NCBI GenBank assembly: GCA_021204165.1
Contig: JAJPZU010000112.1
Span: 1 to 11,574 of the forward strand
Length of the DNA: 11,574 nucleotides
Origin: Prevotellaceae bacterium
GTDB lineage: Bacteria > Bacteroidota > Bacteroidia > Bacteroidales > Bacteroidaceae
Direction: 5' to 3'
In this document: in pieces, positions 227 to 11,164 of the stretch
How the letters are laid out: every line of letters starts with the position of its first letter
Numbering within the stretch: position 1 is the stretch's first letter
The notes under the pieces: generated by a model
Database searches by the model: none
Told to the model about the DNA's origin: nothing
What the model saw: the letters and a program-made list of their open reading frames with translations, nothing else
Position numbers and translations under genes: made by a program

Positions 227-1681
227 CTATAAAGGCATGTTGCCATGCTTCTTCGGCGGATTGCTCTGATTCTTGTTACGAGTCATCTCCAGTGCCTGAA
301 TAAGACGTATGCGGGTGTCACACGGCTGTATGATTTCATCAATATAGCCAAGCTGTGCAGCCGGCATAGGATTGGCAAATTTACGTCGGTATTCCTCTAT
401 CGCCGCCGCGCGCTCTTCCGGCGAAGCCTTTCGGTAGAGAATGTTACATGCACCTTCCGCTCCCATCACGGCAATCTCCGCAGTCGGATAAGCTAAATTC
501 ACATCCGCACCGATACATTTGCTGTTCATCACAATGTATGCCCCGCCATAAGCCTTGCGCGTGATGAGTGTGAGCTTCGGTACTGTGGCCTCAGCAAAAG
601 CATACACAATCTTAGCCCCATGACGGATGATGCCGTTGTGCTCCTGATCTGTTCCCGGAAGGAAGCCCGGAACATCCTCCACCGCCACGAGCGGAATATT
701 AAAGCAGTCGCAGAAACGGATAAAGCGGGCAGCCTTGTCGCTTGCGTCAATATCGAGCGCACCGGCAAGGAAGTTTGGCTGATTTGCCACAAAACCCACT
801 GTGCGGCCGGCAAGACGTCCGAATCCTACTACAATGTTCTTGGCAAACTCGGTCATCACCTCGAAGAAATACTGCTGGTCGCATACCGGTTCTATGATAT
901 TGCGTATGTCATACGGCACATTAGGGTCTTCCGGAACCACATTGTCCAGTTCATGGCACACGCGGGTTATCTCATCTGTCACCGGATAGACAGGGGCATC
1001 TTCCATATTATTGGAAGGGATGAATCCAATCAGTTCGCGGATGGTCATCAGAGTCTCTTCCTCATCGCGGCAGACGAAATGGCTCACACCGCTCACACTG
1101 CTATGCGTCATGGCACCTCCGAGTGTCTCCTTGTCAACCGCTTCATTCGTCACGGCACGAACCACGTCCGGACCGGTGACAAACATCTGGCTCTGTCCCT
1201 TCACCATGAGAATGAAATCTGTCAGTGCAGGAGAATAGCACGACCCTCCGGCGCAAGGCCCGAGTATGGCAGAAATCTGCGGAATCACTCCGGATGCCAT
1301 CACGTTTTGCCGGAAGATGTGTGCAAAACCGGTCAGACTTTCCACTCCTTCCTGTATGCGTACACCTCCGGAATCGTTCAGACCGATAATCGGTGCTCCG
1401 TTTTTAAGGGCAAGTTCCTGCACTTTCACAATCTTCTGCGCGTTTGCCGCACTGAGAGAACCTCCCAATACCGCAAAATCAAAAGCATAGACGAAGACAA
1501 TGCGTCCGTCAATCTTGCCGTATCCGGAAATCACACCGTCGCCCTCCACACGCTTCTTGTCCATGCCGAAGTCGTTGCAACGATGCACCACATGCTTGTC
1601 CATTTCCACAAATGTTCCTTTGTCAAGAAGCAAATCTATGCGCTCACGTGCTGTGAGTCTCTGTATCTTATTGTCATTCAT
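227..1681 (-). CDS. Acyl-CoA carboxylase carboxyltransferase subunit, the propionyl-CoA carboxylase beta / methylmalonyl-CoA decarboxylase alpha family.
   Basis: 484-aa ORF whose N-terminus (LTARERIDLLLDKGTFVE...GLNDSGGVRIQEG) and overall layout are typical of the CoA-carboxyltransferase family. It overlaps the upstream carrier-protein gene by 8 bp, which implies translational coupling. Confidence 0.9.
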   Translation of the reverse strand: MNDNKIQRLTARERIDLLLDKGTFVEMDKHVVHRCNDFGMDKKRVEGDGVISGYGKIDGRIVFVYAFDFAVLGGSLSAANAQKIVKVQELALKNGAPIIGLNDSGGVRIQEGVESLTGFAHIFRQNVMASGVIPQISAILGPCAGGSCYSPALTDFILMVKGQSQMFVTGPDVVRAVTNEAVDKETLGGAMTHSSVSGVSHFVCRDEEETLMTIRELIGFIPSNNMEDAPVYPVTDEITRVCHELDNVVPEDPNVPYDIRNIIEPVCDQQYFFEVMTEFAKNIVVGFGRLAGRTVGFVANQPNFLAGALDIDASDKAARFIRFCDCFNIPLVAVEDVPGFLPGTDQEHNGIIRHGAKIVYAFAEATVPKLTLITRKAYGGAYIVMNSKCIGADVNLAYPTAEIAVMGAEGACNILYRKASPEERAAAIEEYRRKFANPMPAAQLGYIDEIIQPCDTRIRLIQALEMTRNKNQSNPPKKHGNMPL

Positions 1682-2192
1682 TGTTTTCGTTCAGTTTTAA
1701 TGTTATCAATGTCTGTCCGACCTTCACACTGTCGCCTTCTGCCACAAGCACAGAAAGCACCTCGCAATCAGCCGCGACCTTATAGTTCGACTGCATCTTC
1801 ATAGCCTCCATAGTCAGTACCGTGTCTCCGGCCTTCAGCTTGTCGCCCTGCTTGCAATACGCTTTTACTATCTTGCACGGCATCGGCGCCGTCACCTGAT
1901 CGCTCTGCACGGCATCCGTCTTTTTCCGCATACGCATGTATTTTGCCTGCGAGTCCAACATGTCAATCTGGTAAGTCGAATAGTTGACATTCACGCGGTA
2001 ATGCTTTCCTGCATCGCTCTTCACCAGCTCTGCCTTGTACGAGTTTCCATTGTGAATAATCGAACATGTTCCGTTTTGCAACATGGCCACATCCACATCA
2101 TAAACTTGTCCGTCTATATCAATCTTCACGTTGTTTCCGTCTTTGCTCAACAGCGTGACATCTACAATCTTGTTTCCAACCTGAATATCCAT
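1674..2192 (-). CDS. Biotin carboxyl carrier protein, i.e. a biotin/lipoyl-attachment domain protein.
   Basis: 172-aa ORF. The C-terminal biotinyl domain carries the canonical EAMKM motif (LTMEAMKMQ), with the biotinyl-Lys codon at ~1797-1799. The gene sits between the biotin carboxylase and carboxyltransferase genes. Confidence 0.9.
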   Translation of the reverse strand: MDIQVGNKIVDVTLLSKDGNNVKIDIDGQVYDVDVAMLQNGTCSIIHNGNSYKAELVKSDAGKHYRVNVNYSTYQIDMLDSQAKYMRMRKKTDAVQSDQVTAPMPCKIVKAYCKQGDKLKAGDTVLTMEAMKMQSNYKVAADCEVLSVLVAEGDSVKVGQTLITLKLNENNE

Positions 2193-2308
2193 TATAATCG
2201 TTTTTTAGTTTAAGTTCTGCCTGCACATCGTTCATGCGGCTTCAAAATTCCACGAAACCGGACACCATGCGGGCGGCAGGCAGATGGTTGTGCAATCTTA
2301 TCGTACCA

Positions 2309-3835
2309 TTATACTCTCAACACACCCTTCTGCAATCCGAATGTTCTCCAGCGATTGATGGCGGACTGTCCCTGTTTGCATTCAGCCGCCCCACCGGTAT
2401 TTTCCTCCAGATTCATAAGGTAGTCTATGTAGGCGGCAATCACCGCCATCTCTTCGCTCTCGTTCTTGAATCCCGGACGCGGACGCAGACGCTCCGCATT
2501 GCGCTCTATAAAATAGGTGTTGTAGTTTCCTTCACGGAAATCAGGCACATCAATGATGCGGCGCAAGTAGCGTATGTTCGTAGTCAGACCGACAATCTTA
2601 TATTCATACAGCACTCTCCTCATGCGCTCAATGGCATACTGTCTCTCCGTAGCCCAAACGATAAGCTTTCCAATCATCGGATCGTAATGTACGGGAATCT
2701 CATAGCCCTCATATACATAGCTGTCGATTCGGATACCAATGCCGTGAGGCTCTGTGAGCTGAACAATCGTTCCCGGCGAAGGCATGAAGTTATGCTCCGT
2801 ATCCTCCGCACAGATGCGGCACTCTATGGCATGTCCTCTTTGGCGGATATCCTCCTGACGGTAGCCCAGCGGTTGTCCGTCAGCAATAAGAATCTGCTGT
2901 TTCACAAGATCGACGCCGACAACTTCTTCCGTGATAGGATGCTCCACCTGAAGCCGGGTGTTCATTTCAAGGAAATAGAAATGATGGTGCTTATCCACAA
3001 GAAACTCAATGGTGCCGGCACCGATGTAGCCCACCGCTTTTGCCGCAGCCACCGCCTTCTCGCCCATTTCGCGGCGAAGAGTGTCATCAATAAACGGCGA
3101 CGGACTTTCTTCTACTATTTTCTGGTGACGACGCTGCACAGAACATTCGCGGTCGTAAAGATGGATGACATTGCCATGCTTGTCGCCAAGTATCTGAAAC
3201 TCTATGTGGTGAGGCTCCTCGACAAACTTTTCGATATAGACTGTATCATCGCCAAACGAAGCCATCGCCTCGTTCTTTGCCGCATTGTACATCTCTATCA
3301 CATCTTCTTCGCGTTCAATAAGTCTCATGCCTTTTCCGCCGCCACCCATAGAAGCCTTCAGCATCACGGGGAAGCCAATCTTTCGGCACACCTCCAAGGC
3401 TTCCTCGCCACTGCTCAATTGCTCCTGAGTTCCGGGCACAACGGGCACTCCCGCCTTTATCATCTGTATGCGGGCGGAAATCTTGTCGCCCATCAATTCC
3501 ATGGTTTCCGGCTTTGGACCGATGAAGATGATGCCTTCAGCTTCACAACGACGCGCAAACTCGGAATTTTCGGAAAGGAAACCGTATCCCGGGTGAATGG
3601 CATCCACTTTGTGCTTCTTTGCCGCCTCGATAATGTGGTCGATATTCAGGTAGCTGTCTGCCGACGACGCACCGCCGATACACTCTGCTTCGTTTGCAAA
3701 AACGACATGGCGCGACAGACGGTCGGCAGTGCTATAGACAGCCACAGAACGTATGCCCATTTCATAACAAGCACGCATCACCCGAATCGCAATCTCACCG
3801 CGATTGGCAACCAATACTTTTCTTATCATAAACAT
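2309..3835 (-). CDS. accC: Biotin carboxylase subunit of an acetyl/propionyl-CoA carboxylase.
   Basis: 508-aa ORF with the N-terminus KVLVANRGEIAIRVMRA typical of biotin carboxylases. It also has an ATP-grasp glycine-rich loop (MLKASMGGGGKGMR) and a conserved C-terminal biotin carboxylase domain. Confidence 0.93.
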   Translation of the reverse strand: MFMIRKVLVANRGEIAIRVMRACYEMGIRSVAVYSTADRLSRHVVFANEAECIGGASSADSYLNIDHIIEAAKKHKVDAIHPGYGFLSENSEFARRCEAEGIIFIGPKPETMELMGDKISARIQMIKAGVPVVPGTQEQLSSGEEALEVCRKIGFPVMLKASMGGGGKGMRLIEREEDVIEMYNAAKNEAMASFGDDTVYIEKFVEEPHHIEFQILGDKHGNVIHLYDRECSVQRRHQKIVEESPSPFIDDTLRREMGEKAVAAAKAVGYIGAGTIEFLVDKHHHFYFLEMNTRLQVEHPITEEVVGVDLVKQQILIADGQPLGYRQEDIRQRGHAIECRICAEDTEHNFMPSPGTIVQLTEPHGIGIRIDSYVYEGYEIPVHYDPMIGKLIVWATERQYAIERMRRVLYEYKIVGLTTNIRYLRRIIDVPDFREGNYNTYFIERNAERLRPRPGFKNESEEMAVIAAYIDYLMNLEENTGGAAECKQGQSAINRWRTFGLQKGVLRV

Positions 3836-4424
3836 CTATATTTGGTTATACACTTTCTTCCATCTCAAAACAAAATATAATACGATATCAGAAAGCACAC
3901 TCCGAGAACCGCATGACAAAGCGGACAACTCACGAAAGAATACATATCCCAAGAATACATGAATACACAAAAAACACCGATATTCCATCCCGGAATCTCA
4001 GCAAAACAGTATTCTCAGTATTTTTCCGGCAGCTCTTATTCCCGAGAGCGGCATCTGAACATCGGCATCGGCAGGTCTTCTGACTTCTCCATTGGCAGCA
4101 CGGCCTTCCCAACCACAATTATTTACAGCCTCACGGCAATAACAAAGGTCAGTGGCACAACATGATGATGTGTTGCCATAAAAAACAGGAGTTACAGCTA
4201 CGGGTATAGTTACAGACTCACACTGTATTCCCTCTTAGTCTGTCCGTCTTTCCTGAGTGCTTCTTCCTGAAGTCCGCCATTCCCGAAATCAGATTAGGCA
4301 AATTCCAGTCTCAACAAGCCTCAAATGAAGAGGACAAGAACCAAATGCGCGGCAAAAGTACACATAAAATCCGAATCCATGCACTTTTTACCATATTTTT
4401 ACTCCAAACATTCTATGAAACTCT

Positions 4425-4512
4425 TGTGTTTTCTCCGGTATTTCCCCTGTGCTTTTCCGGTATTTTCCCGGTGTTCTTCCTGTATTTTTCCTGTATTTTC
4501 CCGGTTTTTTCC
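4425..4512. repeat. Array of phased short direct repeats with a GTATTT(T)CC(C) core, about four copies at ~11 or ~22-bp spacing, in the flotillin-accC spacer.
   Basis: ccggtatttcccc / ccggtattttcccgg / ctgtatttttcc / tgtattttcccgg read directly from the sequence. The spurious plus-strand ORF 4345..5163 translates these as a repeated IFPVF peptide. Confidence 0.6.
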
Positions 4513-4559
4513 ATAAAAAAGCATGGGACATTCCGCTTCTTTCGGAAATGCCCCATGCA
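4513..4559 (-). terminator. Putative Rho-independent terminator downstream of the flotillin gene.
   Basis: On the minus strand, GCATGGGGCATTTCCG-aaag-aagCGGAATGTCCCATGC forms an imperfect ~14-bp stem, followed by TTTTTTAT. It lies immediately 3' of the flotillin stop at 4579. Confidence 0.55.
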
Positions 4560-4578
4560 CCGTTTCTCTTTAGTTTAT

Positions 4579-5955
4579 TCAGTCTTCTACTTCTTCCGCA
4601 TCCACAGCAGGCTCTTCTTTTTTCTTCGCCAGATACTCCGGCAAATTAAGCCCCGCCATATCGAAAAGTTCGTTAAGCGGCGGAACAGACTTCATCAGTC
4701 CGGACACGAAACCGGCTGTAGAGCCTTTTCCGTCTGCACCACCGGCACCATTGTCCCAAACAGTCACATGGTCAATGTTGATACCCTTGACAGCCTCAAC
4801 CTGAGTCTTGACAAGCTCAGGAAGCTTTTCGAGCAGCAACAGCATGTATGCCTTGTTGGCATCTCCTCCGGCAGCCTGAACCATCTTGTCATAACCGGCA
4901 GCCTGCTTCGTCAGCACTTCATACAAACCTTTTGCTTCTGCCTCCATCTTGGCATAAATGGCATCTGCTTCACCCTTTGCATTGACACGCACGCGCTCTG
5001 CTTCCGCCTCCGCTTCGATGATAAGTCGTCTCTTCTCAATCTCCTGCGGAACGAGTACGTTGGCTGTTTCCGTAGAGCGTTCACGTTCTGCACGCGCTTC
5101 CTCAGCCTCGCGTTCTGCCGCGTATGCTTCCTGCAATGCCTTTGCCTGCTGTACTTTTTCTGAGGCTGTGGCTTTACGCTGTGCCTCCGCTTCCTTCTCA
5201 CGGCGATAAGCCTCGGATGCAGCAATGGCAACCTTCGCTTCGTTCTCACCCTTTACGGCTTCCGCATTGGCTTCGGCTGTACGTATGCGGGTTTCTCTCA
5301 CCGCTTCCGCCTTACCGATTTCACCGACTTTATCTTGCTCTGCCACTCTCACTTTTGCCTCATTTATCGCTTTGGCAGCAGCTTCACGTCCGAGAGCCTC
5401 TATATATCCGCTCTCATCTTTTATATCGGTCACGTTCACATTTATCAGACGAAGACCAATCTTTTTCAGTTCCACTTCTACATTGGCAGAAATGCTCTCA
5501 AGAAACTTGTCACGGTCGTTGTTCAGTTCCTCAATACTCATCGTGGCAATTACCAGACGCAACTGTCCGAAAAGAATATCACGCGCCAGTTCCTGTATCT
5601 GTGCAGCACTAAGTCCGAGCAAACGTTCCGCAGCTGCATTCATGCAATCGTGGTCTGTAGATATACCCACAGTGAAGCGGCTTGGCACATCCACACGGAT
5701 GTTCTGTTTGCTGAGCGCATTTGTCAGATTCGCATCAATACTGATTGGTGTAAGGCTAAGATAAGCATAGTCTTCGATTATAGGCCATACGAAAGCACCG
5801 CCGCCATGCACGCAACGTGCCGACGTTTTGCTGCTTTTACTCCCATAAATCACCAAAATTTTGTCCGAAGGACACCGTCTGTAACGATTCACAATGGAAA
5901 CGAACAGCGCAATAGCCACTACAGCGGCAATTACAATAAGATACATAGATTCCAT
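4579..5955 (-). CDS. SPFH / band-7 flotillin-like protein of the YqiK/FloT type.
   Basis: 458-aa ORF with an N-terminal transmembrane helix and an SPFH domain (…ILVIYGSKSS…RVDVPSRFTVGIS…). A long Ala/Glu/Arg/Lys-rich coiled-coil region follows, then a C-terminal acidic tail. This architecture is typical of bacterial flotillins. Confidence 0.88.
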   Translation of the reverse strand: MESMYLIVIAAVVAIALFVSIVNRYRRCPSDKILVIYGSKSSKTSARCVHGGGAFVWPIIEDYAYLSLTPISIDANLTNALSKQNIRVDVPSRFTVGISTDHDCMNAAAERLLGLSAAQIQELARDILFGQLRLVIATMSIEELNNDRDKFLESISANVEVELKKIGLRLINVNVTDIKDESGYIEALGREAAAKAINEAKVRVAEQDKVGEIGKAEAVRETRIRTAEANAEAVKGENEAKVAIAASEAYRREKEAEAQRKATASEKVQQAKALQEAYAAEREAEEARAERERSTETANVLVPQEIEKRRLIIEAEAEAERVRVNAKGEADAIYAKMEAEAKGLYEVLTKQAAGYDKMVQAAGGDANKAYMLLLLEKLPELVKTQVEAVKGINIDHVTVWDNGAGGADGKGSTAGFVSGLMKSVPPLNELFDMAGLNLPEYLAKKKEEPAVDAEEVED

Positions 5956-6044
5956 AATTAATTATTTTAATATCCAACTTTTCAAGATTACAAGACCGGT
6001 TGCCGCATGAAGTGCCCCCTGTCTGAAGAAAGTTTCAAATTCAT

Positions 6045-6137
6045 CTCTCTTGGTCAAAAATTCTCATCCCTTTGGGTCAAAATTTTCATTCCTTTAGTCA
6101 AAAAAATCTCATCCCTTTGGGTCAAAGATTCTCTACC
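6045..6137. repeat. Four tandem ~23-bp direct repeats of tttgggtcaaaaattctcatccc variants. Each contains the dyad TTTG-GGT-CAAA. They sit between the NfeD-like stop and the flotillin start.
   Basis: tctcttggtcaaaaattctcatccc | tttgggtcaaaattttcattcc | tttagtcaaaaaaatctcatccc | tttgggtcaaagattctctacc. The last copy overlaps the stop codon of the upstream gene at 6122-6124. Confidence 0.75.
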
Positions 6138-6700
6138 ACCAGCATTTCTCCGCCGACAACATCAGTAATCCGCACCTTGCGCCCTGTGGTTATCGCCTCA
6201 CCCTCTGTAACCGCATCCAGTTCATGCACGGAACCGTTCACACTTATCTGCACTTTTCCTCTGCCGCTCTTCTTCTCCGGAATGCGCAGATAGACATCTG
6301 CCACACGTCCCTTGCAATATTCAATGCGGAAGGCGCCGTTTGCCTCCAGCTTCTTGGTCTGCTTGTAGATAAAGAAGAACATCCACACAAAAAACAAGCC
6401 TACGGCTGCTGCCACGAGTGCCAGCAACACAGCATTACCCATCAGCGAATGCAGACAGACACCTGCCCAGCCGAAGCCCACAAAGAAATTGACAAGGCTC
6501 CTTATAGAGAACAACGACAGTCCTCCTCCCAAATCCATTGTGTCTCCGGCATCAAAATCGACATCTATGTCGCTTGAATCCATTCCGAACAACGTAAGCA
6601 GAAGCTGTATTACAAACACAGCTGACCCGACAAGTGCACAAACCCAGAACACTTGCTGCATAGTTTCAAGTCCACTGAACCAAATTGAAAAACTCTCCAT
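6122..6700 (-). CDS. NfeD/YqiJ-like membrane protein, the usual operon partner of a flotillin.
   Basis: 192-aa ORF with 3-4 N-terminal hydrophobic helices and a C-terminal soluble ~60-aa beta-rich OB-like tail (GRVADVYLRIPEKKSGRGKVQISVNGSVHELDAVTEGEAITTGRKVRITDV). It lies directly upstream of the flotillin gene on the same strand. Confidence 0.7.
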   Translation of the reverse strand: MESFSIWFSGLETMQQVFWVCALVGSAVFVIQLLLTLFGMDSSDIDVDFDAGDTMDLGGGLSLFSIRSLVNFFVGFGWAGVCLHSLMGNAVLLALVAAAVGLFFVWMFFFIYKQTKKLEANGAFRIEYCKGRVADVYLRIPEKKSGRGKVQISVNGSVHELDAVTEGEAITTGRKVRITDVVGGEMLVVENL

Positions 6701-6899
6701 ATTCTAATTAGTTTTACGGTTATATAAATCATATTCTGAAATGATATGTCCACCATCTATTTTACAAAGAGGGAACATCCTTAAAAAAAATAACATTACC
6801 AGACTGCATTTTTCATTAAACACTCTCCTTCTCACTGCATTTTCATAATTCATAAAAGACTCCGATTAATTATTTTAATGATAAATGCCAATCTTATAA

Positions 6900-7580
6900 T
6901 TACCATACATATTGCGATGGATATTTTACTTGCATGAAAGTGAAGCCATGCCCCATTACGCTATGGTGAGAAGTCGTCTGTGCTGTCATATTTGATACAA
7001 TACTGCCAAACACCTGCATATTTGCTCTTGCGTCACCGCGTGAAGCAAGAATGGGTGCATCAGGGACATCGTAATCGCGCCATGCAAATAAGCAGACCTT
7101 TTGGGGATATGTCAAGAGATTTACAGCTGTTGTAGATTCTTGAATCAAAACTTCTATCGATTTAAGCATTTGCTGTCTGGCTTTTGCCCGTTTCCCTTCC
7201 GGGTATTTTCCCGTATTAGGCTCAACATATTTTTCCTCATAACAACACAAGTCACAGAATACAACTTTTTCATGTACCATTCCTGTCTCTGTCATTAATA
7301 AATCACATCGGTCTTTAATATTGGCAGTAGTGCCTGCAAATTGTTCGATATACTTTTCAAAACGAACCACAGCAATTTCCTTGCCATTATTATTCACCTT
7401 CAGAACTTCTTTATTGCATTCATTACGGTAAGCCCTTTCAGGCAATTGCTGACATCGTATGCAACTCTTGGAGTCGGTTTCTGAGAAAGGTTCGCGTATT
7501 CTGTAGAGAGGCACTTCTACTTCTTGTGGATTTATGCCATAATGGAGCGGGAATGCCTTTTTAAGAAAAGATTCTATCAT
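6900..7580 (-). CDS. Hypothetical Cys-rich protein that is translationally coupled to the upstream ABC-type ATPase. It is the candidate effector or partner of a two-gene defence-like cassette.
   Basis: 226-aa ORF. Its ATG overlaps the ATPase stop in an ATGA arrangement (7577-7580). It contains CxxC (CIRC) and HxxxxxCDLCC motifs. Composition is AT-rich like the ATPase gene. I recognise no family with confidence; a DUF4276/RloB-type partner is possible but unverified. Confidence 0.6.
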   Translation of the reverse strand: MIESFLKKAFPLHYGINPQEVEVPLYRIREPFSETDSKSCIRCQQLPERAYRNECNKEVLKVNNNGKEIAVVRFEKYIEQFAGTTANIKDRCDLLMTETGMVHEKVVFCDLCCYEEKYVEPNTGKYPEGKRAKARQQMLKSIEVLIQESTTAVNLLTYPQKVCLFAWRDYDVPDAPILASRGDARANMQVFGSIVSNMTAQTTSHHSVMGHGFTFMQVKYPSQYVW

Positions 7581-8737
7581 ACGTCAAGATTTACAAATTC
7601 ATTATAAATGTGACTCATCAACTCTGAGAGGTCGTAAGTATCTACAATCCACCGTCCGCGTTCATTTTGGACAAGCAAATCTTGTATCTCTCCTTCATAT
7701 ATTCGATAAACAGCCGTGTTAGTCCTGCTCAATTGGGCACGTACTGCATTTGTTTGGTTTAGTAAAACATTCAAGTAGTTAAGAATATACGGACTATGGG
7801 TCGCAAGCATCATATTAATTTCTCGATTTTCATCCGCATGTGTTGCCGACAGCACAATTTCTTCTATGAGTTTGCACTGTGCATCAGGGAACAGACTTAA
7901 CTCAGGTTCTTCAATATGGATATATACTTGTTTCTTCAAATCGCTGGGTTCTGCGACAGCCCGAAACTTGTTCAATCTTTCCATATCATACAGATAGTTC
8001 AGGACAGAGCGCTTGAATGCGTCCTTAAATGAAAAGCCATTTGCGCTGGCATAGTTCTTTACAATCAAAGCGACCGATGCTGACGTTTGAATGCCGGATG
8101 AAGCTTCTCGTAAGTCGATTGGCTCATGACGGCTGTCATTTGGAATGACGGTGTAGCGTGTAGGCTTACCTTTGGGGTGGGTTATCTGAAGCTTCATGCC
8201 TATATAGTCCAACGGTATCTCTTTGTCGTTTGCCGATGCTCTGACAAAATCATTGTTTGTTTCATGAAAATAAAATCCCAAGGTTGCACCTGTGTTTTGG
8301 GATGCCTTTTGCGCCCATGTCGGAATGATGTTTCGGTTTTCAGAGATATAGGACACTTTGTTGAACACCAAATGGTCAGAAGATATAATGGGAAGTCTGC
8401 CTAATTTCTTGTTTTCCATCAAGATGGTGTATTCCGTTTCATCATCCATGACTACACTATACCTAATTACACTTGACGAGTCAAGCATTTTATACATTCC
8501 CGTTTCTTTCATCATCGAATCGAAGCGCATCCTGAAAGGAGAGCTTGTTATTTTTGAATGCTTCAAATAAGAACGGATGTTTGCCATTTTGTACAGATAG
8601 CGCATCATGCTTATCAGCTTCATCAGTGTGCTTTTACCACTTGCGGATTCACCAATCAACACAGTGAATGGCAGAAGGCCAAGGTTCTCAATGTGCTTTA
8701 GCGGACCAATATTTTTAATTGTTATAAATTCCTTCAT
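7577..8737 (-). CDS. ABC-type ATPase of the AAA_21/AAA_15 (SMC-like) family with no fused transporter domain. The longest ORF extends to 8815, but the start at MKEFITIKNIG (8737) is more plausible.
   Basis: Walker A GESASGKST at ~8627-8653. An ABC-signature-like SSGIQ motif. A Walker B / D-loop VYIHIEEPELSLFP. An H-loop LATHSPYIL. There is no transmembrane region. GC is low compared with neighbouring genes. Confidence 0.85.
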   Translation of the reverse strand: MKEFITIKNIGPLKHIENLGLLPFTVLIGESASGKSTLMKLISMMRYLYKMANIRSYLKHSKITSSPFRMRFDSMMKETGMYKMLDSSSVIRYSVVMDDETEYTILMENKKLGRLPIISSDHLVFNKVSYISENRNIIPTWAQKASQNTGATLGFYFHETNNDFVRASANDKEIPLDYIGMKLQITHPKGKPTRYTVIPNDSRHEPIDLREASSGIQTSASVALIVKNYASANGFSFKDAFKRSVLNYLYDMERLNKFRAVAEPSDLKKQVYIHIEEPELSLFPDAQCKLIEEIVLSATHADENREINMMLATHSPYILNYLNVLLNQTNAVRAQLSRTNTAVYRIYEGEIQDLLVQNERGRWIVDTYDLSELMSHIYNEFVNLDV

Positions 8738-8956
8738 AATAAAGTTTTGTTTTTCAAACAATCTGATAAAGTATGATTTACCCAATAAAGATACTAATTT
8801 GTACTTCAACAGCAAAAAAAATCCTGTATTGTGACGCTAAAAACGTGAATTTATTACAGAAATGGCACTTTGTCATGTCAAATCAGAAGGTGAAGTGTCA
8901 AAACAGGAGATACAATCCAAACTTATTGTTGCATGAACATCTGGGGCCAGAGCCGC

Positions 8957-9478
8957 CTAATCCTCCAGCCAGTCCTCCGACAAACTGAAGTCCTTGTCCG
9001 CAAACAAGTCCGCCAGCCCGGAAATCTGCTTCAGCCTCAACAGCTCATCCTTGTCCATGCCGATATTGCGCATAATCCACGCATCCGACATGCCCGCAGA
9101 CGTAAGCTCCGACACGATGTGGCTCATCAGCTCTATCGTGTGCGTACCCCTCGCCCTGTTATGACGTATGGTCGAAGCCATTCTGCACGAAATATCCTTG
9201 TCTATCACCGACACGGGAAGCATCCCCTTCTCCCTGTCATAAATTCGTTTCGATGTCTTCATCACCAGATAGCGGTGGAATCCATCTACAATCTCATACT
9301 TGTCCTCGTCCTTCAAGTAATAGCACACGCAAGGCATGGTGTACCCGTCCTCCCATATCGACAGTTCCAACAGCTTCATCTCCGGAGGAGCCACCATGTT
9401 GGGGTTATAATTGTTCGCCACCACTTTCTCGATAGGCACTGCTATCACATTATATACCGGACTCTTAAAATTTTCCAT
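8957..9478 (-). CDS. ibrB: ParB-like nuclease domain protein (IbrB-like).
   Basis: 173-aa ORF with a ParB/Srx-type motif IVDGFHRY (codons ~9272-9286). It overlaps the upstream PAPS-reductase-like gene by 14 bp, which implies translational coupling. Confidence 0.7.
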   Translation of the reverse strand: MENFKSPVYNVIAVPIEKVVANNYNPNMVAPPEMKLLELSIWEDGYTMPCVCYYLKDEDKYEIVDGFHRYLVMKTSKRIYDREKGMLPVSVIDKDISCRMASTIRHNRARGTHTIELMSHIVSELTSAGMSDAWIMRNIGMDKDELLRLKQISGLADLFADKDFSLSEDWLED

Positions 9479-10763
9479 ATTCCAATGCTTTATATTTTCT
9501 CATCACACTTTCTCGTCTGCTCTTCTCATTCTTGGTCAGGGTAAAGCCCATGTACTTACACACATGGTCGTTTCTCAGTATGCAGATGCAGACACGCTTG
9601 AATGTCGGAATCTCCCGAAACTCCGGAATGTCTATGTCGTCAACGTACTCCATCATGACCGGTCTTTTGTTAGTGCGGTATGCCGTGGTCGTCCCAACCG
9701 TAAACTTCACCCCTGCCGCACGCAATTTTTCAATGGTCTCATCGCTCAGACATCCGCCTTTCGTCCTCCAGAATCTCATGCTCACACCTATCTTGTCCAG
9801 ATAATTGCGGCACACCTTCTCCGGCAACGTGTCCAGCAGAAAGTACATGTACTTTTTCCAAGAAAATCCGTGAGGACATTTTATCGACTTCCATCCCATA
9901 GCCGTCGTATTCCCGTAGATGCCGGAAAAATTGACACCATTGACACGGCTGACCATCCGCCCCCACATGTCGGGGTCTATCGCCCGATAGACACTCAGCG
10001 TAGGTATGGCATGAGAAATGAACGGACTTGCCACCCGCTGCCGCCCAATCGGAATGCCCGCACGCGAATAAAGGTCATAAAGCGGATTATAAGTCCATCC
10101 GAATTTTCCGTTTGCCGTCCAGATGTCAGATGTTTTCCAGTCATAAAGCGGATAAGCGTTATACACATGTGCAGCAAGCTTATGTGTCCATTTGTAATGC
10201 GAAAGCCGCCGGTAGTTCTTGGCATTGTGTATGGCCGTCCACCGGTTAAAACTCTCCTGCGTCCTTATGCCTACAAGACAACATATACGTTCACATTTCT
10301 TCCGGTTGCGCAGCCAAGGGGCGAAAAGATACTGGAAGTCATAGTCCCACAAGGCATCAGTGAAGAAATTGAAATCGGCTGCCGTATAAGCCCCCTCAGG
10401 CATTTCCCTCACCCATATATCCTTCTCCGATTCTCCCCAAGGTCTCCAATACGACTGGTGCATGGATGTACAGGTCATGACTTTGAAGGGCACGCAACAA
10501 TGGTACACCTCCAGAATGTCGCGATTCTCCGACAGGGTACGGCGCACATACTCCGTGGTCTGCCGGTACTGCACCTCGTAGTCCATGTGGAACACACCCA
10601 GCTTACGTCCCGGAGCATACCTCCGTATATAGTCTATGCACAGATTCAACAACACTCCGCTGTCCTTGCCACCCGAAAACGAGACATACACATAATCGAA
10701 ATAATCGAATATGATCTTCAGCCTCCTTTGCACTGCTTCATAAACATCAAGTTGCCTAATCAT
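9465..10763 (-). CDS. ibrA: Phosphoadenosine-phosphosulfate reductase family PP-loop protein. It is DndC/IbrA-like, with a PAPS_reduct domain and a C-terminal extension.
   Basis: 432-aa ORF with the PP-loop SFSGGKDS near the N-terminus (~10659-10682). Its size and C-terminal region fit the IbrA/DUF3440-type proteins that pair with ParB-like IbrB. Confidence 0.8.
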   Translation of the reverse strand: MIRQLDVYEAVQRRLKIIFDYFDYVYVSFSGGKDSGVLLNLCIDYIRRYAPGRKLGVFHMDYEVQYRQTTEYVRRTLSENRDILEVYHCCVPFKVMTCTSMHQSYWRPWGESEKDIWVREMPEGAYTAADFNFFTDALWDYDFQYLFAPWLRNRKKCERICCLVGIRTQESFNRWTAIHNAKNYRRLSHYKWTHKLAAHVYNAYPLYDWKTSDIWTANGKFGWTYNPLYDLYSRAGIPIGRQRVASPFISHAIPTLSVYRAIDPDMWGRMVSRVNGVNFSGIYGNTTAMGWKSIKCPHGFSWKKYMYFLLDTLPEKVCRNYLDKIGVSMRFWRTKGGCLSDETIEKLRAAGVKFTVGTTTAYRTNKRPVMMEYVDDIDIPEFREIPTFKRVCICILRNDHVCKYMGFTLTKNEKSRRESVMRKYKALEYGKF

Positions 10764-11164
10764 TCCTTACGTCCTCCGGCATATACCATCTTGTCATAAT
10801 TCTTCCATTCCCTATGTGTCCTGAAGCCGTTGCGTGCAAAGTCAGCCACATGACGCTTGTGTACGACTGCGGTCAGCACAGTCCTGCTCACCGACTCCGC
10901 CACCACCCTGTCGAGCAGAGCATCAATGAGCAAAGAATCGTCGCCCTTGATATAATAATTGTCAATACAGGCTTCACGCTCTTTCTCCTTTACCGGAATG
11001 AATCCGATTACCTCCTTTTTCTCTATGGCCACATACCATTTGTGATGACGGGAGGTCTTGAAGGGATAATTGTTGTTGAGCCTCAACACTGCCGCATTCA
11101 TCACCAGCGGTGCCACCAGCTCATAAAGGCGGGAAGATGTGCCTTCTAAAATCTCAATATTCAT
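10760..11164 (-). CDS. Small protein, possibly with a GNAT-like acetyltransferase fold. It is the first gene of the coupled three-gene operon.
   Basis: 134-aa ORF whose stop overlaps the downstream PAPS-reductase-like gene start by 4 bp. Its beta-alpha pattern is loosely GNAT-like (WYVAIEKKEVIGFI…YYIKGDDSLLIDALLDRV…FARNGF). The fold assignment is tentative. Confidence 0.5.
   Translation of the reverse strand: MNIEILEGTSSRLYELVAPLVMNAAVLRLNNNYPFKTSRHHKWYVAIEKKEVIGFIPVKEKEREACIDNYYIKGDDSLLIDALLDRVVAESVSRTVLTAVVHKRHVADFARNGFRTHREWKNYDKMVYAGGRKE

Follow-up and report, generated by a model that had tools for sequence, protein, structure and literature searches.

A mobile two-gene cassette of gut bacteria that pairs an ABC ATPase with a predicted, cysteine-bearing PD-(D/E)xK nuclease

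The stretch of DNA considered here, called the window in what follows, consists of the 11,574 nucleotides of contig JAJPZU010000112.1 from a Prevotellaceae bacterium (GenBank assembly GCA_021204165.1). Within it, two genes of the minus strand overlap. The first, at 7577-8737, encodes an ABC-type ATPase of 386 amino acids (aa). The second, an open reading frame (ORF) at 6900-7580, encodes a protein of 226 aa, here called the partner, which is proposed below to be a divergent nuclease of the PD-(D/E)xK fold with a metal site made of four cysteines. The stop codon of the ATPase gene and the start codon of the partner gene are contained in the sequence ATGA at 7577-7580 (...GAC GTA TGA / ATG ATA GAA...), so that the two genes are translationally coupled. 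An initial annotation, made from the sequence alone, had called the second protein the cysteine-rich partner of an ATPase, and the name is deserved: apart from the overlap, an ATPase homologue lies immediately upstream and on the same strand in all 45 of the related loci (37 from genomes, 8 from metagenome contigs) checked by tblastn. The spacing of cysteines and histidine given there is also the spacing read from the translation, that is, C40-I-R-C43, 11 residues, C55, 47 residues, and then H103-EKVVF-C109-DL-C112-C113.

A mechanical list of ORFs starts the ATPase at TTG 8815, giving a protein of 412 aa. Most of its homologues begin to align near residue 27 of the longer version (range 16-28), and gene callers working on identical contigs give 386 aa, so the real start is most likely the ATG at 8737 rather than the TTG. 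The protein is of the Pfam AAA_15/AAA_21 kind (AAA_21, 3.7e-14; AAA_15, 2.5e-12) and its motifs are intact. A Walker A motif, GESASGKS, is read in the translation at 8630-8653 on the minus strand, and it is accompanied by the signature-like SSGIQ, a Walker B motif (VYIHIEEPE) and an H-loop (LATHSPY, with THS at 7793-7801). The best of its 80 matches to PADLOC models is to PDC-M29A (2.1e-26, over positions 4-337 of the model's 410), followed by AriA (3.3e-14), NsnB, HEC-01A, HEC-02A (1.4e-10) and PtuA (4e-8). PDC-M29 comes from a set of 145 untested candidates for phage defence, defined by their embedding in operons for BREX, DISARM or type I restriction-modification (R-M), and in it FAM_02872 comes after an ABC ATPase (FAM_00005), an arrangement of which RefSeq has 110 instances (Payne et al., bioRxiv 10.1101/2024.01.29.577857). 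A literature search on PDC-M29 turned up nothing specific: no published function, fold or experiment.

The two genes travel together and without the rest of the window. The pair persists in three more distant loci (L047, L049 and L051), where the relatives of the partner are 23% identical, and none of the other genes in the window recurs in the 45 related loci. Across the cassette and the intergenic sequence on either side (window positions 6501-9000), the GC content falls to 0.36-0.43, as against about 0.49 in the flanks and 0.45-0.53 in most of the remaining window, a difference consistent with horizontal acquisition. The hosts are mostly gut Bacteroidales, with a few Oscillospiraceae and Lachnospiraceae and one gut alphaproteobacterium ("Azospirillum sp. 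CAG:239"). From the linkage, the neighbours that do not recur, the low GC content and the spread of hosts, it follows that the pair is an autonomous, mobile unit of two genes. Scans around the cassette for repeats, promoters and terminators gave nothing beyond what is expected of shuffled sequence, no direct or inverted repeats delimit an insertion there, and a megablast search of plasmids with the cassette gave no match.

In some other genomes the pair keeps company with defence genes. In four loci (L009, L010, L011 and L034), it sits between two genes of a type III R-M system, one for the methyltransferase (5e-213, about 1015 aa) and one for the restriction subunit (7e-208, about 1080 aa). 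All of these genes stand on one strand with near-zero spacing (in L009, at 1784-9934). In L047 (2489-6606) two ATPase-effector pairs stand in tandem. The first is Septu-like, made up of a 409-aa AAA_15 ATPase and a 213-aa HNH protein (CxxC...H...CNYCN), and the second, directly after it, is made up of a 389-aa ATPase and a 201-aa member of the partner family. Downstream in the same locus are genes for an ORF6N protein, a YhcG-type PD-(D/E)xK protein and a Y1 transposase.

Viewed in this light, the pair looks like a two-gene anti-phage module, a candidate of a kind already catalogued, but one should ask whether the cassette is concerned with immunity at all. It could instead be an accessory or maintenance module of a mobile element or an R-M system, a pair resembling addiction or toxin systems, or an ATPase and nuclease for repair or recombination in the manner of RecF/RecN or SbcCD. 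About 30 of 38 loci have housekeeping neighbours rather than defence genes, and PDC-M29, the closest catalogued system, is itself a candidate that has never been tested; both facts count against a role in defence. One could add that a DDE transposase adjoins the pair in L001-L004, that the Y1 transposase lies near it in L047 and that Pfam describes AAA_21 as a "putative AbiEii toxin, Type IV TA system". Against a non-immune role stand the position of the pair inside type III R-M operons in four loci and beside a Septu-like pair in another, an ATPase whose best matches are all to ATPases of defence systems, and a patchy distribution and low GC content that suit accessory defence genes better than core repair genes. 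I regard a role outside immunity as rather unlikely.

If the ATPase is readily placed, the partner is not. It has 98 homologues in a database clustered at 90% identity, and an exhaustive profile search extends the family to 337 representatives of clusters at 50% identity; almost every one is a single-domain protein of 200-230 aa. None of the homologues bears a name or a Pfam domain, either in the 90%-clustered database or in a second search of a large database with a diverse profile. The family has also diverged more than the ATPases beside it. In L032 and L037 (cassette at about 4850-6670) the ATPase is 63-64% identical to that of the window and the partner 30%, while in L026 (cassette at 751-2603) the figures are 65% and 40%. 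Comparisons of this sort suggest that the partner gene either evolves faster than the ATPase gene or is exchanged.

Conservation was judged from a family alignment of 153 sequences with identity down to about 22%. Four cysteines are nearly invariant: C40 (98%), C55 (97%), C92 (97%) and C113 (97%). Three others are less so, C43 (80%), C109 (67%) and C112 (18%, the position being usually Thr). C92, which the initial annotation overlooked, directly precedes D93, a residue conserved in 152 of the 153. None of the five histidines is conserved (H13, 16%; H103, 23%; H205, 11%; H206, 10%; H211, 36%). The annotation had supposed a zinc site built of both cysteines and histidine, and had asked that homologues conserve them. 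C40, C55 and C113 are so conserved, which speaks against a chance pattern of cysteines, and H103 and C112 are not.

More is to be learned from the exceptions. C43 is absent in 31 sequences, and in 27 of these a cysteine (C52') has appeared two or three residues before C55, shifting the motif from C-x2-C...C to C...C-x2/3-C. In three relatives (P0226, P0229 and P0241), C43, C55 and C113 have been lost jointly, and in two of them C40 is gone as well. A ligand that has moved and several that were lost together argue that C40, C43 (or C52'), C55 and C113 form one site, and judging from the alignment that site likely binds metal. The codons of the proposed tetrad fall within 7242-7463 on the minus strand, at 7461-7463 (C40), 7452-7454 (C43), 7416-7418 (C55) and 7242-7244 (C113). 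The same three relatives retain C92 (codon 7305-7307, minus strand), which behaves independently of the tetrad and therefore has a separate role. They also retain D36, E75, D93, E110, K130, Q137 and R168, residues that will be taken up below. Being natural variants that lack the tetrad, they could usefully serve as controls in work on what the metal site does.

That the partner binds metal through its cysteines is thus probable from the pattern of conservation, relocation and loss, and the part of the earlier idea that concerned a cysteine metal site stands; the part that made His103 a ligand does not, given its conservation of 23%. The metal predicted is most likely Zn2+. The alternative is an iron-sulfur (Fe-S) cluster, [4Fe-4S] or [2Fe-2S], which would make the partner an "iron-staple" nuclease like AddB, Cas4, Dna2 and Exo5, possibly sensitive to redox or oxygen, and would leave the rest of the explanation offered here as it is. 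Five to six conserved cysteines (C40, C43/C52', C55, C92, C113, and C109 at 67%) exceed the needs of a zinc site. In the Fe-S nucleases of the PD-(D/E)xK superfamily, ligands far apart in the sequence hold an N-terminal segment against the nuclease core, and the ligands proposed here, likewise far apart in the sequence, would do the same. All 37 of the genome loci, moreover, come from anaerobes of the gut or rumen type. The spacing speaks against a cluster. Cas4 and AddB have one cysteine before the core and a group of the type CxxCx5C after it, a pattern that C-x2-C-x11-C...C113 does not resemble. C92 is kept when the other four cysteines are lost and so does not belong to the same site, no Fe-S family of Pfam is matched, and the restriction to anaerobes may only mirror the gut bias of the databases. 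I take an Fe-S cluster to be possible, though clearly the less likely metal centre. A bolder version is a long shot: that the tetrad, with C92 and C109 nearby, binds a redox- or oxygen-labile cluster beneath the active-site strand, and that the state of the cluster and the ABC ATPase both gate a nuclease whose lysine has shifted. Were it true, this would be an anaerobe-confined class of immune nuclease with no characterised counterpart.

There is a second layer of conservation, which the initial annotation missed in finding no recognisable catalytic motif. D36 and K130 are invariant (100%), D93 and Q137 nearly so (99%), and R168 is conserved in 97%. At position 75, 99% of the sequences have E or D, and at position 110 all have D or E. 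These residues gain meaning from the fold. Two AlphaFold2 (AF2) models, one from 53 sequences (pLDDT 80.9, pTM 0.79) and one from 125 sequences (pLDDT 93.0, pTM 0.89), agree in topology. The N-terminal part is formed by a helix, two short strands and the helices 37-45 and 47-54, which bear the first three cysteines. Then come a hairpin (60-73), a helix (74-79), strands at 94-98 and 105-113, a long helix (130-146) and a strand at 160-168, and the chain ends in a helix and a three-stranded sheet. In these models the partner has the alpha-beta-beta-beta-alpha-beta core of restriction endonucleases. E75 opens helix 74-79, D93 stands directly before strand 94-98 and D/E110 lies inside strand 105-113, which by position in the secondary structure is the canonical order of acidic residues in the superfamily, alpha(E)-beta(D)-beta(D/E). 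The codons of the proposed active site, chosen by conservation and by position in the model, fall within 7077-7475 on the minus strand: D36 (7473-7475), E75 (7356-7358), D93 (7302-7304), D110 (7251-7253), K130 (7191-7193), Q137 (7170-7172) and R168 (7077-7079).

The models also locate the cysteines. C40 and C43 are within predicted helix 37-45, C55 comes just after helix 47-54 and C113 ends the core strand 105-113. On the models, a zinc ribbon or treble clef as a small autonomous domain can be set aside, since the CxxC segment is predicted to be helical rather than to form beta-hairpin knuckles; nor does the window protein match any zinc-ribbon family of Pfam. What had been read as a ribbon or treble clef with a long insert would then be something else, the supposed insert being the PD-(D/E)xK catalytic core itself. 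The C-terminal third had likewise been thought acidic and perhaps a separate interaction domain. It proves to be balanced in charge (residues 166-226, 61 aa, contain 4 acidic, 4 basic and 8 aromatic residues), and both models make it part of one compact fold. A separate acidic domain is accordingly rejected.

Comparison with known structures and families points the same way. A Foldseek search of the PDB with the model gave McrC as each of its top three matches (E 0.014, probability 0.85-0.96). Among 125 relatives, 22 match PADLOC model PDC-M29B (best 1.1e-8), 6 match PDC-M47B, 5 match the nuclease domain of Shedu in Pfam, SduA_C (best E 3.9e-5), and 1 matches HEC-02B (3e-6). When two sets of ten relatives were scanned, there were matches to PDC-M29B and none to SduA_C. 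One relative (P0242, 216 aa) joins an ATPase N-terminus (residues 3-64, matching HEC-01A, PDC-M29A and AriA) to a partner-like C-terminus (residues 80-183, matching PDC-M29B); it is probably a deletion, a frameshift or an assembly chimera. With a fold of a known nuclease superfamily, relatives that match PDC-M29B and SduA_C and an ATPase that resembles PDC-M29A, the claim that the partner founds a new family of effector or sensor is weakened, even though it has no close or experimentally characterised relative.

Other types of effector were considered and rejected. An HNH nuclease is excluded by the lack of a conserved histidine and of any HNH match in Pfam or PADLOC, and a nuclease of the Toprim/OLD type (AriB, HEC-01B) by the lack of the Toprim fold with its conserved E...DxD and of any Toprim match in the same two libraries, so the protein is indeed without either signature, as had been said of it. 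HEPN, TIR and SIR2 effectors fail for want of family matches and of a conserved histidine. Membership in the McrC family is rejected as well, because alignment of the family profile to E. coli McrC gives a probability of 0.1 and because the partner's companion gene encodes an ABC ATPase. Matches in PDB to snakin, DnaA, ADAMTS-5 and FBXO11 (E 0.26-4.4), and the only one from the family libraries, to Abhydrolase_8, which falls under its curated cut-off (E 0.02), are ascribed to chance.

I conclude that the partner is very probably, as predicted from the models, a divergent nuclease of the PD-(D/E)xK, or restriction-endonuclease, type. Certain results weigh against that conclusion and should be faced. 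The lysine of the canonical (D/E)xK is missing: position 112 is occupied by T (86 sequences), C (27), S (17) or Y (12) and never by K. The models show no strand between helix 74-79 and strand 94-98. The partner of the window matches no model in Pfam, NCBIfam, PADLOC or PHROGs, sequence searches of the PDB with the single protein and with two family profiles gave nothing usable, and hhalign, run with the family profile on E. coli McrC (from NC_000913), gave a probability of 0.1. The assignment of E75, D93 and D110 as catalytic residues, and the geometry of the tetrad, are drawn from secondary-structure position and conservation. As to the first objection, the place of the canonical lysine of the third strand may, I suggest, be taken by the invariant K130 on the helix that follows, together with Q137.

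The missing lysine can be given a different significance. Inactive PD-(D/E)xK domains serving as binding modules are known, and the partner might be such a module, a non-catalytic, zinc-binding sensor or adaptor that recognises a phage component or DNA and signals to the ATPase, which would then be the real effector. The cysteine site is conserved, and rapid divergence, which is common in sensors, is far more marked in the partner than in the ATPase. The acidic residues of the partner at the canonical catalytic positions, however, along with K130, Q137 and R168, are conserved at 97-100% and are kept even in relatives lacking the cysteine site, and this is the pattern of an enzyme. The ATPase of 386 aa, besides, has no effector domain, and related two-gene systems couple an ATPase to a nuclease. 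A sensor in place of a nuclease seems improbable.

How, then, does the predicted ATPase-nuclease cassette relate to systems already described? The nearest is PDC-M29. Both have two adjacent, co-oriented genes in the same order, the ATPase of the window matches the PDC-M29A model, one relative of the partner (P0233, residues 27-164) aligns to positions 16-139 of the 164 in the PDC-M29B model, and both PDC-M29 and the family of the window are found inside R-M operons. The partner of the window, on the other hand, has no match to PDC-M29B at E <= 1, and it has 226 residues against the 164 positions of the model. By sequence, the cassette is a divergent sister of PDC-M29, not a detectable member.

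HEC-02 offers the closest case in which function is known. It joins an ABC ATPase to a NERD protein of the PD-(D/E)xK type and protects E. coli against phage, both genes being needed (bioRxiv 10.1101/2024.01.29.577857). The window has the same plan, an ABC ATPase and then a small protein of the PD-(D/E)xK fold, and the sequences touch at the matches to HEC-02A (1.4e-10) and, from one family member, to HEC-02B (3e-6). The relationship is nonetheless marginal. HEC-02B has a (D/E/Q)xK motif where the family of the window has Thr, Cys or Ser at the position of the lysine, and no metal site of cysteines has been described for NERD proteins.

The remaining systems are likenesses of plan. In PARIS (AriA/AriB) and Septu (PtuA/PtuB), an ABC ATPase is paired with a nuclease, and the ATPase acts as a scaffold that restrains the nuclease. 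The ATPase of the window matches those of both systems (AriA, 3.3e-14; PtuA, 4e-8), but their effectors are of the Toprim (AriB) and HNH (PtuB) types, neither of which has its signature in the partner. McrC is a PD-(D/E)xK nuclease that depends on a separately encoded NTPase. It differs from the partner in having no sequence similarity to it, in its length (348 aa, with an N-terminal part that binds McrB) and in working with an AAA+ GTPase rather than an ABC ATPase; it also has the canonical D...DxK and is not known to bear a cluster of cysteines. Finally, the C-terminal domain of Shedu SduA (PF14082) is a PD-(D/E)xK nuclease of defence matched by 5 of the 125 relatives, but Shedu consists of one gene, whose product senses through its N-terminal domain, and the partner of the window has no match to PF14082.

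All of this can be put together in a model. I suggest that the catalytic centre of the partner would be formed by E75 at the start of the first helix of the core, D93 at the N-terminus of the second strand and D/E110 in the third, with K130 and Q137 on the next helix taking over from the absent lysine. The site of four cysteines would be structural, a link between the helical N-terminal segment and the catalytic strand. By analogy with PARIS, Septu and HEC-02, an oligomer of the ABC ATPase may bind the nuclease and restrain it. When infection is sensed, the nucleotide state of the ATPase would release or activate the nuclease, which would then cleave nucleic acid, leading to immunity or abortive infection. 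The linkage and coupling of the genes, the fold, the conserved residues, the co-variation of the cysteines and the embedding in R-M operons are established by the observations given above. A physical complex, the nuclease activity, the identity of the metal, the trigger, the substrate and a phenotype of defence are inferred. Taken whole, an autonomous, mobile cassette of an ABC ATPase and a divergent PD-(D/E)xK effector is the best explanation of the evidence and one that I hold with a fair but far from complete degree of confidence.

The rest of the window can be dealt with briefly. Directly upstream of the ATPase, three overlapping genes occupy 8957-11164 on the minus strand. They encode a ParB_N-like protein of 173 aa, a PAPS-reductase/DUF3440 protein of 432 aa (1.1e-87) and an ORF of 134 aa with a faint RimI-like match, an arrangement like that of IbrA/IbrB. 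In PADLOC the PAPS-reductase protein weakly matches BrxP (4.7e-7) and DndC (3.4e-6). The trio does not accompany the cassette in related loci, and a literature search for DUF3440/IbrA in defence gave nothing specific. On the other side, 227-6700 on the minus strand is taken up by housekeeping genes: those for proteins like carboxyltransferase, biotin carrier and biotin carboxylase (identified from their translations alone), after which come one for a flotillin/Band_7 protein (6.7e-28) and one for a membrane protein like NfeD. The plus strand has several long ORFs (e.g. 2234-3880 and 9411-10799) that run antisense to these genes or to others and look like shadow ORFs.

One major theme of bacterial immunity is the pairing of an ABC ATPase with a nuclease, as in PARIS, Septu, Gabija and HEC-01 to HEC-03. 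The cassette described here brings no new principle to it, its architecture and likely logic being those of known systems. What is gained is a fold, a set of catalytic and metal-binding residues that can be tested, and a link to PDC-M29, for a family that is annotated in no database although gut Bacteroidales and Clostridia commonly carry it (the 337 clusters mentioned above). If the prediction is right, the cassette would add to that theme a type of effector as yet untouched by experiment, a PD-(D/E)xK nuclease that lacks the usual lysine and is stapled together by a site of four cysteines.

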